A program made the translations under genes and the position numbers. From NCBI GenBank assembly GCA_025677605.1, contig GCA_025677605.1_4110.1: DNA of 64,000 nucleotides. The stretch is one strand, 5' to 3'. The stretch comes from a phage. Below are positions 42,465-59,838 of this stretch, piece by piece (the stretch's first letter is position 1; every line of letters starts with the position of its first letter). The notes beneath the pieces are model-generated. The model did no database searches, had not been told where the DNA came from, and worked only from the letters and a program-made list of their open reading frames with translations.

Positions 42465-42500
42465 ATTATAGCAAAAAGGGCTGACCGAAGTCAACCTTTT
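42465..42500 (-). promoter_or_regulatory. terminator-promoter fusion module (stem GGGUUGAC-UUCG-GUCAGCCC, U-run, TATAAT)
   Basis: -35-like TTGACT lies inside the terminator stem; TATAAT 18 bp downstream on minus strand. Confidence 0.6.
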
Positions 42501-42504
42501 TGTT

Positions 42505-43632
42505 TTATACAATCACTTCACCAAAAATACCATTGATATCACGTTCAATGATGTATTCTCCTTCATGTTCAGCTAAGAATTTTTTAATGGCTTCATTAAC
42601 TTTAGGACGATGGATATTATTGAATGTTTCTGTGCAACCATCTCCCTTTTCATAATAACCTTTATTATATAGTTTACCACATAACGCAATTGTATGTATT
42701 ATTATTTCCAATTCTCTAGCAAGTTTCCCACCCACATTCTTATGAAATAAAATGGAAATTTCATTACTCCAAAAATTATCTACTTTATATATTTTTTTAT
42801 AAGATAAGTTTTGTGGACTTAATCTTGCTTTAATAGTTTTGTTTGTAATACCAGCTTTATCCGATTTTTTTGCATAATCATTGTGAATATAAAATCTTCC
42901 AGGCTTGGAAGTTTTAAATCCTTTTACTGCACACGTGGGACAACCAGAACCAGACAGATGTGAATTTGGTGTTTGTTGAAATTCACCATGTTCTTTGCAT
43001 ATTATAATAGAGGTTACTTGGTTGTTAATGTAGTCATATAAAGAATAATCATACTTATTTCCGTGTATAAGATGTGATTTTTTTATAAATTCACCTAAAG
43101 TTTGTTTCGTGCATTCTTGACAACCAATTTTACCAGTAGCTAAGTCAGTAATTGTGGGTTTTTTTATATCACCACAATCATTACATACTACTTCAATTTT
43201 AGTTCTACTAGGAAGTGTAGAGTTAAACGAAGTTATTCCACTATAAGTAAATTTATCATAACCATATTTTTTGTTGATGACACTAATATGATTAAGGCTG
43301 TAATATGGAATATTAATAATATTGTAAAAAATCTTCCCATTAAATCCCTGCCTAATAAAATTCGTGCAGGTGGCTCCAATAACTAACATACCATCGTTAT
43401 TCACTACAAGTTTGGTTTTTGATTTAGATATATAATCTTGTGATCTATTGATATAGAATCCAAGAACTCTTGGATCATTTATTTCACCCATAATACTAAT
43501 AGGATCTTGAGCAATGTTGGATTTTTTTACAAAATTTATATCTTCGGCTTTCATCCACTCAAAAAGCATTCCATGCTCTTCATAAAAATAAACTTTTTCA
43601 CCATCTTCATTAAAATAGTACTGTTCAAACAT
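42505..43632 (-). CDS. zinc-ribbon protein with T5orf172/GIY-YIG-like C-terminal region (375 aa)
   Basis: two CxxC...CxxC pairs; GRFYIH...KAGITN...KARL resembles T5orf172 motif; by eye only. Confidence 0.4.
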   Translation of the reverse strand: MFEQYYFNEDGEKVYFYEEHGMLFEWMKAEDINFVKKSNIAQDPISIMGEINDPRVLGFYINRSQDYISKSKTKLVVNNDGMLVIGATCTNFIRQGFNGKIFYNIINIPYYSLNHISVINKKYGYDKFTYSGITSFNSTLPSRTKIEVVCNDCGDIKKPTITDLATGKIGCQECTKQTLGEFIKKSHLIHGNKYDYSLYDYINNQVTSIIICKEHGEFQQTPNSHLSGSGCPTCAVKGFKTSKPGRFYIHNDYAKKSDKAGITNKTIKARLSPQNLSYKKIYKVDNFWSNEISILFHKNVGGKLARELEIIIHTIALCGKLYNKGYYEKGDGCTETFNNIHRPKVNEAIKKFLAEHEGEYIIERDINGIFGEVIV

Positions 43633-43861
43633 TACTTAAAACTCCTTTCCAGTACTGAACCCGCCCAGCACCATGAATCTTAGCTTGAATCTTATCTTTT
43701 TCGACAAGACCTTCTTTGAAATCAATGGAAGTATTATCGCTCTTAATTACATCTAAGTCAAGTACTTCTTGCGTAGTTAATGATGTATTATCTGCGATTT
43801 GTTGTAGAGTAATTACATCAGTACCGAAGAATTCTGCTAAACGTATAAAAGATAGTTTCAT
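43625..43861 (-). CDS. hypothetical protein (78 aa)
   Basis: track ORF; 8-nt overlap with downstream gene. Confidence 0.6.
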   Translation of the reverse strand: MKLSFIRLAEFFGTDVITLQQIADNTSLTTQEVLDLDVIKSDNTSIDFKEGLVEKDKIQAKIHGAGRVQYWKGVLSNV

Positions 43862-43887
43862 GTATTACCTCTTGAGTTGATGAAATG

Positions 43888-43920
43888 ATTATAGCAAAAA
43901 GGGCTGACCGAAGTCAACCC
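43888..43920 (-). promoter_or_regulatory. terminator-promoter fusion module
   Basis: GGGCTGACCGAAGTCAACCC stem with A5 on plus strand and rc TATAAT at 43888-43893. Confidence 0.6.
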
Positions 43921-43926
43921 CTTATA

Positions 43927-44154
43927 TCATTTATTGTTGTATTCATACCAACACAGTTTAATATTATATACCAAATCCTCATAATCACTACATTGCACTA
44001 TCCATGAATATTTTTCGTCAAATGTATATTTGGGTGAATTAATCATCCATCTTATAGATGCTTTTGTTTTATCAGGATTAAATTTATACGTTTCGCGTGA
44101 CTTGTATGAATCAAGCTTCGCAATCGCATATTTTTTGAATTCTTCATCATTCAT
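43927..44154 (-). CDS. hypothetical protein (75 aa)
   Basis: track ORF; ATGA overlap with denV stop. Confidence 0.6.
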
Positions 44155-44588
44155 TGTATCATATCAACATAATATATAGGTAGCTCAACATCAGTAAACT
44201 TATACCACTTAGGCTTCATTTGAAGCTTCTCAATCAAACGCTCACGCGATGTTTTAATCTCTGACTCAGATGGTACGTAATCATTACAAAACTCAGCAGG
44301 GAACCCACTGATATCGTTTACTTCAGTGTTTTGAATCTTCATACCACGACGCAAACATTCGTTGACAATATCGATATGACGCTTCTGTAAGTACAGTAAC
44401 TTGTCGTAAAAGAATGTTACATGACCTGAACCTAACAGATAAGTACTGTTAATTTTGAAATCACGTACACGCTTACGTGCTTGAACATGTTTTTGTACAG
44501 CACCAAACACACGTGGAAGTTCACGATATTCAGCCATCAGATGTTGGTCAGCAAGTTCTTTAACGTGTACTAAGTTAATGCGTGTCAT
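44151..44588 (-). CDS. denV: pyrimidine dimer DNA glycosylase / endonuclease V (145 aa)
   Basis: N-terminus [44 protein letters not shown] and WYK match T4 endonuclease V as recalled. Confidence 0.8.
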
Positions 44589-44616
44589 GTATTCATCCTC
44601 TCGTTTCGATGAAATG

Positions 44617-57691: not shown

Positions 57692-57961
57692 TTATTTTTC
57701 CTTTAAGGTTGGATATATGCCAGTGCACCAATACCGATAACAACGACAGTGAATACAACCAGAAATATATTAAGTTTCATCATTGTTTAATCACCTCGAT
57801 TACTTTATCGATCTTAGTTCCAATACTTTCAGTACTTTCAGTTTTAGTTGTACAGTAATCTGGACGGGTGTCAGGAAACTTCTCAGTTACCCATGAATGT
57901 CCATAGATGCCCAAACCGATACCAACGATTAAGATAATGATTTGCATGATAGTTCCTCTAA

Positions 57962-58774
57962 TTAAATTACATATGGTTTATAGTAATGAATCTCATTTGC
58001 TATTGCAGTGAAAACTTTCTTATTAAATCTTTCACCATAATCACGAAGTGATTCACCTTCTACGCTTTCAATAAAGTAATTATATACTGGTAGTCGTGCA
58101 CTGTCAATACCTATAAACGATTTCATGTAAATTTGTACTAAACGATTCATACCTGAATTTAAACATTCAACATCAAAGTGCTTGATACCTTTGTCTAAGT
58201 GCTTGAATGCATTGATGATACCACGCTTGAAATCACGCTCCATAGTACTGAATAGATTCTCAGGAAACACTGTAATCGGAGACATGGATTTAAGAATGTA
58301 TGTATCTTTTGCATTCTTGATGTACTCAATGAAGCAGTAGTTTACATTAGGCTCAATTGAACGGTCTGCATTATGATACCAGTACTTAAACTCGCTGTAC
58401 TCTGCGAACTTATGCTGGCGTAAGGCATTACAATCCTCACACAGTGCAGTCATGTTCTCTTTATCATTACCACCCTGGAGACAGTCCAGTACATTATGGT
58501 CTAACGTCATGCGTACAAGACGTTTCCCTTTAAGTACATAAGGTCTGAATTTATAACGTTCTTTAGTACTGTGCTTATGTAAAGTGAATACTACATTGGA
58601 TTCACCACAACAATCACATTTAAAGCCGTCACGAGACATTACATGAATGAGTTTGCGAGTATTAGGTCCAAACTCAGATTTAGTAATATTATCCACAATT
58701 TCTGATGGTTGGTAATATTTTGAATTCCGTCGAATCAATTCATCGATAGTACTCATTTTAGATTTCCTCTTCAC
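57962..58774 (-). CDS. HNH endonuclease-like protein (270 aa)
   Basis: CDCC...TLDHNVLDCLQGGNDKENMTALCEDCNALRQH resembles HNH core. Confidence 0.5.
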   Translation of the reverse strand: MKRKSKMSTIDELIRRNSKYYQPSEIVDNITKSEFGPNTRKLIHVMSRDGFKCDCCGESNVVFTLHKHSTKERYKFRPYVLKGKRLVRMTLDHNVLDCLQGGNDKENMTALCEDCNALRQHKFAEYSEFKYWYHNADRSIEPNVNYCFIEYIKNAKDTYILKSMSPITVFPENLFSTMERDFKRGIINAFKHLDKGIKHFDVECLNSGMNRLVQIYMKSFIGIDSARLPVYNYFIESVEGESLRDYGERFNKKVFTAIANEIHYYKPYVI

Positions 58775-58786
58775 TGCATTCGGTGA

Positions 58787-58981
58787 TTACTTTTTAACCT
58801 CTATAACTCTTACTAAATGATACCCGCACCTATGGTTGAAATTAAACATGTTTACTAATGCATCAGCTTCTGTTTTTGCCCTAAATTGGAGATTATATAT
58901 GTGCAGAGTTTCATCGAGTGAGGCTTCACCTTTGCTATTGAAAACAATTTTACAAACTTCAAACCTCACTCGATAAATCAT
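58787..58981 (-). CDS. hypothetical protein (64 aa)
   Basis: track ORF. Confidence 0.5.
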   Translation of the reverse strand: MIYRVRFEVCKIVFNSKGEASLDETLHIYNLQFRAKTEADALVNMFNFNHRCGYHLVRVIEVKK

Positions 58982-59187
58982 TGAGTTTGTCCTACAATAA
59001 ATTTCGCTTTAATATCACTTTTGTAACACCACATTTGTTCTTCACTAACTGTCATCCAAGAATTTTTGTTTACTTGTTCGTATGTACTATCACGTACAGA
59101 AAAACATTGGTTTAATGAATTCATAGGGGTAATTTGTACACCGGATTGCATTGAAAGAGCAACAATTAAAAAGATTGTAGTATTCAT
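58978..59187 (-). CDS. hypothetical protein with hydrophobic N-terminus (69 aa)
   Basis: track ORF; promoter TTGACA-17-TAGAAT at about 59245-59285. Confidence 0.55.
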   Translation of the reverse strand: MNTTIFLIVALSMQSGVQITPMNSLNQCFSVRDSTYEQVNKNSWMTVSEEQMWCYKSDIKAKFIVGQTQ

Positions 59188-59289
59188 TGAATGTTCCTTA
59201 ATAGTTAGTCATCCATCTCTTCGAGATGTCTGTTCGCTTCTAATACTACGTATTCTACGCGAATGATTAATAACTGTCAAGGACTTTTA

Positions 59290-59800
59290 ATATTGACGGG
59301 ATTTGAGGAAGGGATTTTTCTTCCCCCCGCTGGGAGGGGAATTTGACGCTGATGGTATCAGAGCTATTGCATTGAAGATTACTCTTAATGAGTACGAAAG
59401 CGGGTCATCCTGTTTCTCTCTACTTCAGTTTCATATGACGGTCTACACTTTTAAACATAGTGTATCTTCATTAAGTATCTATGCAATCAAATACTTAATG
59501 TGAGTACTCAAATTTTGGACGCAACTTTCCTGTACAAAATTTGATAACTCTCCCTTAGATAATTCGTAAGGTGTTATCCTTATATGTCTATCGAGGAACC
59601 ACCAGCCATCCTAACGTGGTTCTTTATAGTGCCGCATTGCCGTGAGGGGTTCATAATATGCCCACATCTGACGGGTTTCTTCTGCACTTCGCACTGCTGG
59701 ACTGCTCAACTGCCCTCTACATTTTCGAGTGGATCAGGTTCATGTCATCCATGCCAACAGAATTGTACAATATCATTGTATCATGAACATCCATTTTGTC
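59290..59800 (-). other. ORF-free structured region downstream of the sigma-factor gene (candidate non-coding RNA)
   Basis: no ORF on minus strand; local inverted repeats such as GAACCAC..GTGGTTC; bounded by a terminator module and a promoter. Confidence 0.3.
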
Positions 59801-59804
59801 CCAT

Positions 59805-59838
59805 AAAAAAAAGGGCTGACCTAAGTCAACCCTTTTTC
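59805..59838 (-). promoter_or_regulatory. terminator module after sigma-factor gene
   Basis: A8-GGGCTGACCTAAGTCAACCC-T5. Confidence 0.6.

Follow-up and report, generated by a model that had tools for sequence, protein, structure and literature searches.

The PeSLs of coliphages RB49 and phi1 are composite elements in which a strong sigma-70-like promoter is associated with a stem-loop (PMC2839356). They span about 70 bp and contain, in order, a stop codon, an AT-rich tract, a near-consensus sigma-70 promoter, a stem-loop, a Shine-Dalgarno sequence and an ATG; five positional subclasses exist, in some of which the stem overlaps the -35 box (PMC2839356). Promoter and terminator activities were both demonstrated with reporters, and through recombination between PeSL copies ORFans are lost or gained and mini-circles arise (PMC2839356). 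PeSLs were later extended to PST/T4 and nt-1/KVP40 (Comeau, Arbiol & Krisch 2014, PMC4122927). In the Vibrio phages nt-1/KVP40, which are Schizo-T-even, the stem-loop consensus is A3-4 G3-loop-C3 T3-4, and the promoter consensus TTGYVH-N17-TAWWAT (PMC4122927). We report here on a 38-base module that is repeated in a stretch of phage DNA of 64,000 nucleotides (contig GCA_025677605.1_4110.1, hereafter the window). Judging from its sequence, this module is probably a PeSL-type fusion of an intrinsic terminator with an early promoter, insulating units of 1 to 9 genes. The genomes matching the window best, Escherichia phage A4 (97% identical) and phage 121Q (about 86%), are both Asteriusvirus, and by these matches the source of the window is an Asteriusvirus of the 121Q/PBECO4 group, that is, one of the Rak2-like coliphages of about 350 kb, which are jumbo myoviruses. 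A literature search found no PeSLs and no transcriptomes for Rak2-like/Asteriusvirus phages; in papers on the Rak2-like group, RpoD-like promoters and terminators appear as separate lists, and PeSLs are not mentioned.

Copies were searched with the core pattern GGGTTGAC-N4-GTCARCCC, allowing up to 2 mismatches. Twelve loci were found in the window, for 0.02 expected. With the 30-mer given in a preliminary description of this DNA, 5 sites were found at up to 3 mismatches, for 0 expected. That description had counted at least ten copies; our 12 loci include all 11 sites it listed, plus a new one at 50002-50036. The minus strand holds all 12 copies, each in a block of small hypothetical genes encoded by that strand. 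This strand is the coding one in 1-21 kb and 38-64 kb, and the plus-strand block at 22-38 kb, in which relatives hold tandem RCC1-like 'DNA condensation' paralogs, contains no module.

Each module is intergenic and is organised as A-tract–GGGTTGAC–4-nt loop–GTCAGCCC–U-run–(TG)n–TATAAT. The typical order on the minus strand is a stop codon, A4-6, GGG TTGAC, a 4-nt loop, GTCAG CCC, T3-6, G(C/T) and TATAAT, followed after about 7 nt by CATCAAC or CATCGAAAC, AGAGG and ATG. The stem begins 4-27 nt past the stop codon, and in four copies this distance is 5 nt or less, the stop codon abutting the A-tract or lying inside it. Gaps from the stop codon to the next ribosome-binding site, which the modules fill, measure 45-88 nt. 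The distance from -10 to ATG is 25-30 nt in 5 of the 7 promoter-bearing copies of the 42-52 kb region, with 8 nt at 50002-50036 and 46 nt at 48704-48748 as the exceptions. Adding 3 loop bases, the 3' arm, the U-run and 2 more bases gives 17 or 18 for the spacer; the U-run is therefore 4-5 U long where the stem has 8 bp, and 3 U long where it has 9 bp. The copy at 59805-59838, a terminator without -10 and so free of this spacer limit, has the longest U-run, 8 U. Successive modules enclose groups of 4, 3, 1, 7, 2, 2 and about 9 genes, dividing the early region into units of 1 to 9 genes. Outside the window, 6-10 module copies were detected by BLAST in each of the related genomes, and a 50-nt module consensus matched 175 phage records, among them Asteriusvirus, Klebsiella K64-1, Salmonella Munch, Eneladusvirus (Yersinia, Erwinia), the KVP40 group and T4-likes of Aeromonas.

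All 12 hairpins were stable, with free energies of -10.9 to -20.9 kcal/mol and z-scores of -2.5 to -7.4 relative to shuffled sequences. In all 12 copies the sense, minus-strand RNA was more stable than the antisense RNA, because the first T of TTGAC pairs with a G (U.G wobble) where the other strand has a C·A mismatch. For the covariation analysis, cores were taken from the window, from three loci of Asteriusvirus, from further phage records and from 20 stretches of IMG/VR, with a pattern that fixed the inner five pairs only; 66 of them were distinct. The U.G wobble was kept in 57 of these 66 cores. Outer stem pairs were exchanged freely between GC, AU, UA and CG (for example ACCC/GGGU, GUAC/GUAC and GUGG/CCAU), and none of 500 shuffles reached the observed covariation score. 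Paired cells amounted to 93.9%, against 26-60% when partners were slid. The loop was UUCG in 26 of the 66 cores, and GNRA in 9. Pairing of this kind points to an RNA hairpin and not to a DNA site, and so do the loops, mostly UUCG or GNRA. In the window itself the loops are UUCG (4 copies), UCCG (2 copies), UUCA, UCCA, UAAC, UUUU, AUAA and UUAG (one each), so that of the UUCG hairpin with U-run first proposed for the minus strand, the hairpin and the U-run stood, and the UUCG tetraloop holds for 4 copies of 12.

The features of Rho-independent terminators were all found: a GC-rich hairpin, an immediate U-run, presence in the sense RNA and a position downstream of a stop codon. The ortholog in Salmonella phage Munch carries an independent annotation as terminator. 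Like canonical terminators, the modules combine a GC-rich stem of 8-9 bp, a UUCG or GNRA tetraloop, a U-run, and an A-tract able to pair with it. They differ from them in that the 5' arm is held at TTGAC, which constrains the stem sequence, in that the U-run is limited to 3-6 U by the promoter spacer, and in that the conserved U.G wobble weakens the hairpin of the opposite strand.

Were the modules ordinary terminators only, their -35 and -10 likeness would come from AT-rich intergenic DNA, and downstream genes would be expressed by read-through or from other promoters. We consider this improbable. In 10 of the 12 copies, a hexamer that differs from TATAAT at no more than 1 position lies 16-18 nt past the -35 (P=6e-15, given the hexamer frequency of the window itself), a fixed spacing that terminators alone do not account for. 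The hexamer 3' of the U-run is TATAAT in 5 copies, TATTAT in 4, TATACT in 1 and TATTCT in 1, and the 59805-59838 copy has none; the TTGAC(T) in the stem followed by TATAAT past the U-run, as initially described, was thus recovered as a -10 in 10 of 12 copies, but as the exact TATAAT in 5 only. Of the 8 copies scanned in the 42-61 kb region, 5 have a TG separated from the -10 by a single base, and with this TG five copies score 11 or 12 of 12 as extended -10 sigma-70 promoters. Over the whole window, TTGAC was accompanied by a properly spaced -10 in 37 of 104 cases on the minus strand and in 0 of 44 on the plus strand; consensus promoters, 37 versus 0, are therefore found on the coding strand alone, and the promoter signals track the direction of transcription. 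TTGAC is also retained while the outer stem drifts and covaries freely, and is lost only in the promoter-less 121Q copy behind the sigma gene, by a compensatory A·U-to-G·C change. The ortholog in Yersinia phage fHe-Yen9-03 is annotated as -35/-10 signals, and the same design is present at PeSL sites of nt-1, which belong to a family with demonstrated promoter activity. What a role as terminators only does explain is the 59805-59838 copy, which is just that, the poor or awkwardly placed -10 of the 48704-48748 and 50002-50036 copies, and the fact that the Munch and G17 orthologs are annotated solely as terminators. None of the strict sigma-70 consensus promoters of the window (37 on the minus strand, 0 on the plus strand) falls in the plus-strand block at 22-38 kb.

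The covariation results bear on a second alternative, in which the inverted repeat would be a DNA operator, bound at the -35 by a dimeric phage regulator that switches early promoters, with the RNA hairpin being incidental. A palindrome centred on the -35 is in the classic operator position, a phage must shut its early genes off, and TTGAC/GTCAG is highly conserved. Nevertheless, the outer positions keep their pairing and not their sequence, unlike what is seen in the evolution of protein sites, the U.G wobble breaks the symmetry of the DNA, the loops are enriched in the RNA-stabilising UUCG and GNRA, a U-run always lies past the stem, and the element sits directly behind stop codons. An operator was rejected as main explanation on account of the maintained outer pairing, the wobble and the RNA-type loops, and we hold it to be very unlikely, even though it is compatible with a fused terminator and promoter and the two are not exclusive.

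Gene order was compared with that of 121Q by tblastn, using a simple 58-gene model of the window. Synteny was broken at 6 of 8 module junctions and at 15 of the 49 junctions without a module (one-sided Fisher p=0.023). Modules therefore tend to lie at gene-order breakpoints, and the effect is modest. Repeatedly, a BLAST alignment of the window with a relative ends on a module. In A4, two copies flank a 2-gene insert where the window has a single copy (51369-51407); up to and including the -10 the window follows the upstream A4 copy, and from there it joins the gene that is found after the downstream A4 copy. In 121Q, one replacement border carries a half-copy (L002 17881). The base just past the -10 is lineage-specific among paralogous copies, C in the window and T in 121Q, which hints at homogenisation of the copies. 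Taken as sequence comparisons, these data give moderate support to a role of the modules in recombination. That they would be small selfish mobile elements, similar to repetitive extragenic palindromes or miniature inverted-repeat transposable elements or to the targets of a site-specific enzyme (a homing endonuclease, for instance), entering intergenic DNA independently and with secondary regulatory signals, was rejected as main explanation and deserves very little credence: one module of the window and A4 is indeed missing between orthologous 121Q genes, variable endonuclease-like genes adjoin the 42465-42502 copy and there is the 121Q half-copy, but no terminal repeats or target duplications were seen beyond the hairpin itself, the orientation is always that of the genes, the position relative to stop codon and ribosome-binding site is fixed within a few nt, and at the A4 indel the BLAST ends share a module, which is what homologous exchange would produce.

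We thus favour a 38-nt cassette that would serve as Rho-independent terminator for the upstream gene(s) and as sigma-70-type early promoter for the downstream gene(s). In an incoming transcript, GGGUUGAC-loop-GUCAGCCC would fold into a hairpin of 8-9 bp with a stable tetraloop, and the 3-6 U behind it would lead the host RNA polymerase to let the RNA go. When the cassette is read as a promoter, the A-tract would be an UP-like element, the 5' arm would supply the -35 (TTGACT), the 3' arm and U-run the spacer of 17-18 nt, and the last part of the U-run the TG that precedes TATAAT in an extended -10. Transcription would start about 7 nt further downstream, giving a leader of about 20 nt with a Shine-Dalgarno sequence and, because initiation takes place past the -10, a new mRNA devoid of the hairpin. 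Each gene or small gene group would then be an insulated transcription unit. Since the cassette is repeated, it would also provide about 40-70 bp of homology for the gain, loss or swap of gene cassettes. The fusion of a terminator with the next promoter had been put forward at the outset, and it agrees with what the sequence can tell: stable hairpins, covariation, fixed -10 spacing and position between stop codon and ribosome-binding site.

Several points weigh against this proposal. Promoter-bearing copies have short U-runs, of 3-6 U followed by GCUAU, and for this reason termination may be partial at these copies. At 50002-50036 the ATG, 8 nt past the -10, fits a terminator-only or leaderless role better, and the 48704-48748 copy has a poor -10. 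The phage's own sigma-70-family protein, and not host sigma-70, could read these sites. The synteny association, besides being modest (p=0.02, n=8), is confounded by the general plasticity of the region, and an acquired gene that brings its own promoter would give the same pattern of breaks. No transcript-end data for Asteriusvirus or its relatives were found in the searchable literature.

After a hairpin has caused release of the RNA, E. coli RNA polymerase frequently remains bound to the DNA and starts again from the closest promoter, a process called recycling termination (PMC11347151). It is conceivable, if rather doubtful, that the zero-distance fusion of the two signals was selected for such a hand-off and, compatibly, that the cassette of about 70 nt, leader included, was exchanged between unrelated phage families. 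At the moment of RNA release the polymerase would already be positioned on the spacer and -10 belonging to the following promoter, and a single enzyme captured at the first of the early promoters could work through a chain of cassettes, producing a separate, insulated mRNA from each. If true, the phage would be kinetically favoured during the first minutes after infection. The exchange is suggested by the presence of cassette and leader in both Rak2-like and Schizo-T-even phages, and by the 64-67% identity of denV with its T-even counterparts.

How far do the modules of the window resemble the described PeSLs? A near-consensus sigma-70 promoter and a stable stem-loop are joined in one short intergenic unit, 10 of the 12 copies having both. 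Copies are numerous (12 in 64 kb) among small, mostly unknown, non-structural early genes. They are also present at indel or replacement borders between close relatives, in a sample that is small and partly confounded. With the PeSLs of RB49/phi1, the modules share the composite cassette from stop codon to ATG, and -35-overlapping stems exist among the RB49/phi1 subclasses. Unlike in the window, where one fixed architecture dominates, RB49/phi1 stems are mostly G-run/C-run and are most often placed between -35 and -10 or over the -10.

The likeness to nt-1 is closer. Direct reading of the nt-1 genome gave, at sites 44631, 32564, 54920 and 55533, AAAAAGGGTTGAC/TTGC-loop-GTCAG/GCAGCCC-T5-6-GTAT(C/T)AT, with the -35 within the 5' arm. 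The leaders CATCGAAACGAG and CATCAAC..AGAGG are common to nt-1 PeSL sites and window copies, and in both genomes the elements stand among small ORFans and near indels. The differences are that nt-1 also has sites with terminator and promoter apart, that the -35 of the window is nearly always a full TTGACT and its -10 TATAAT with TG, and that the genome bearing the modules is an Asteriusvirus (Rak2-like), not one of the Straboviridae. The likening of the modules to the mobile PeSL cassettes of T4-type phages was therefore right as to the design, which is that of the nt-1 sites, and wrong as to the genome, whose best matches are Asteriusvirus and not T4-like myoviruses (Straboviridae); mobility rests on the moderate association with synteny breaks. 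A T4-like host is merely where PeSLs were first described, and has no part in their working.

A common origin with the nt-1 elements is a separate matter. When 185,579 bacterial species genomes were scanned with an exact pattern, 8 hits were obtained; six of them share the core design and lie in Firmicutes contigs, with unrelated leaders. Among Firmicutes/Spirochaete metagenome-assembled genomes, AAAAAGGGTTGACAnnnGTCAGCC(C/T)TTTTTGTTATAAT occurs in Oscillospiraceae, Faecalimonas and Clostridia contigs, with a core of identical design but with unrelated downstream leaders and hosts. These look-alikes are best read as convergence on the shortest possible overlap between a terminator and a consensus promoter. 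Because Firmicutes contigs carry the same core, similarity of the core alone can be convergent, and we rejected it as proof of homology with nt-1; the shared leader is the only hint of a common origin for the jumbo and Schizo-T-even cassettes. DenV (pyrimidine dimer glycosylase; 44151-44588), encoded next to the module at 44617-44654, is 64-67% identical to the DenV of Tequatrovirus/T-even phages, from which gene flow between T-even and jumbo lineages follows, and which suggests a transfer of denV between them.

PeSL-type composite terminator/promoters would in this way extend from T4-like phages to the 350-kb Rak2/121Q jumbo phages. The kind of element is already known, the phage lineage is what is new, and current understanding is not overturned. 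The modules would account for the splitting of the early region into very small insulated transcription units, and are a candidate substrate for the heavy gene turnover between Asteriusvirus genomes. As a compact natural part of 38 nt that would end one transcript and start the next, they may also be of use in synthetic biology and in tests of polymerase recycling.

The individual copies, all on the minus strand, are as follows. The four at 42465-42502, 43888-43925, 44617-44654 and 47085-47122 share TTGACT-18-TGcTATAAT. The first has a UUCG loop (-14.5 kcal/mol) and lies downstream of a variable 375-aa gene, exchanged for others in A4 and 121Q. This gene (42505-43632), which gave a weak treble-clef zinc-finger match, occupies a variable slot bounded downstream by the module; A4, 121Q and SHEFM2K have different endonuclease-like genes there, annotated as endonuclease or homing endonuclease. 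The 43888-43925 copy, also with a UUCG loop (-16.3 kcal/mol), has no mismatch to the core pattern and is followed by the leader CATCAAC...AGAGG. At 44617-44654 the loop is UUCA (-10.9 kcal/mol), and the leader CATCGAAACGAGAGG follows, upstream of denV. The 47085-47122 copy has a UUCG loop and an outer stem AGG/CCU (-16.7 kcal/mol), and 121Q has a 4-gene insert at this junction.

At 48704-48748 (loop UUUU, -16.1 kcal/mol), the weak -10, TATTCT, overlaps TATAAATA. This sequence (48704-48711), directly after the module hairpin, is the T4-type late promoter consensus, and the copy lies upstream of the gene for a 516-aa homolog of the 121Q virion structural protein gp201. In the related phage CBB, the late motif of this group is ATAAATA (PMC5259590). 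Given the overlap with TATAAATA, the virion-gene homolog and the CBB motif, the hairpin may here be paired with a late promoter. The gene past 48704-48711 looks like a late gene set inside the early block.

The copy at 50002-50036, which the preliminary description had missed, reads GGGGTTGGC-AUAA-GUCAGCCC-UUUUG-TATAAT (-14.4 kcal/mol). Its -35 is TTGGCA (TTGACA in A4), its spacer 16 nt, and with the ATG so close to the -10 its mRNA would be leaderless, or else the copy would serve mainly as a terminator. It is missing between the orthologous 121Q genes, which are 7 nt apart. The 51369-51407 copy (loop UAAC, -16.6 kcal/mol) has the stop codon TAA within its A-tract, a -35 TTGACT, an 18-nt spacer and a -10 TATACT.

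The terminator-only copy at 59805-59838, GAAAAAGGGTTGAC-UUAG-GUCAGCCC-U8, is the most stable (-20.9 kcal/mol). It is directly past the stop codon (59842-59840) of a sigma-70-family gene (59840-60802, Sigma70_r2/r3 domains), which is, with denV, among the module neighbours. Its 121Q ortholog has the compensatory stem GGTTGGC/GCCAACC. Between this terminator and the next gene, about 615 nt (59190-59804) are devoid of any minus-strand open reading frame (ORF). They are about 78% conserved in 121Q and without Rfam match, and a consensus promoter is present at 59280, near the downstream end. At E<=1, Rfam gave nothing meaningful over 59100-59900, terminator-like matches near 59800 all being sub-threshold. 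Over the whole window, Rfam 15 at the gathering threshold gave 0 matches, and an ARAGORN scan found no tRNA.

Four further copies, in the 1-11 kb part, had been set apart as 90-bp variants. They turned out to be the same module, with a 9-bp stem in three and an 8-bp stem in 10848-10885, a 17-nt spacer, TATTAT and a conserved leader of 45-60 nt. The 8-bp copy reads GUGGUUGAC-UUCG-GUCAGCCA-U4 (-15.9 kcal/mol). The 8100-8137 copy reads GGGAUUGAC-UCCG-GUCAGUCCC-U3 (-19.5 kcal/mol), and its ortholog in phage G17 was annotated as a terminator by ARNold. The core at 1735-1772 is identical to it (-19.5 kcal/mol), and the 4808-4845 copy differs by its UCCA loop (-17.6 kcal/mol). The region of these four copies is present twice in records spanning both genome ends; a 166-nt stretch of it occurs 5 times in Asteriusvirus records of about 350 kb and 10 times in records of 370-384 kb, at record coordinates of about 7-14 kb. 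Because it recurs in records with both genome ends, this part of the window (1-14000) probably lies in the direct terminal repeat.

The leader behind the four variant modules (minus strand, 1690-1734, 4762-4807, 8054-8099 and 10802-10847) contains ..CCCAYNGGGTGCA..GTGTATCTA.., followed by GTACTGAAAACTATTTTT and a class-2 promoter, with no ORF in 3 of the 4. On the four copies RNAalifold returned only an invariant weak 7-bp hairpin with 0 covariation, and there was no Rfam match. A helix drawn by eye (ACUAGCC..GGCUAGU versus ACUGAC..GUCAGU) was not recovered, and the idea of a small RNA was dropped.

A second cassette family, with at least 19 copies, is present on the minus strand of 1-14000 (for example 3831-3938, 8550-8657 and 10041-10148). 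Its layout is AAAAAGTACT-TTGACA/TTGCAT-N16-17 (often ..AGTACTG)-TATAAT-N6-ACATCAA, then a GGGGAGAAnnnTTCTCCCC hairpin without U-run, a Shine-Dalgarno sequence and ATG. It is thus a promoter with a hairpin in the 5' untranslated region (GGGGAGA..TCTCCCC, after the -10), flanked by GTACT motifs, and resembles the RB49/phi1 PeSL subclass in which a G-run/C-run stem lies after the -10.

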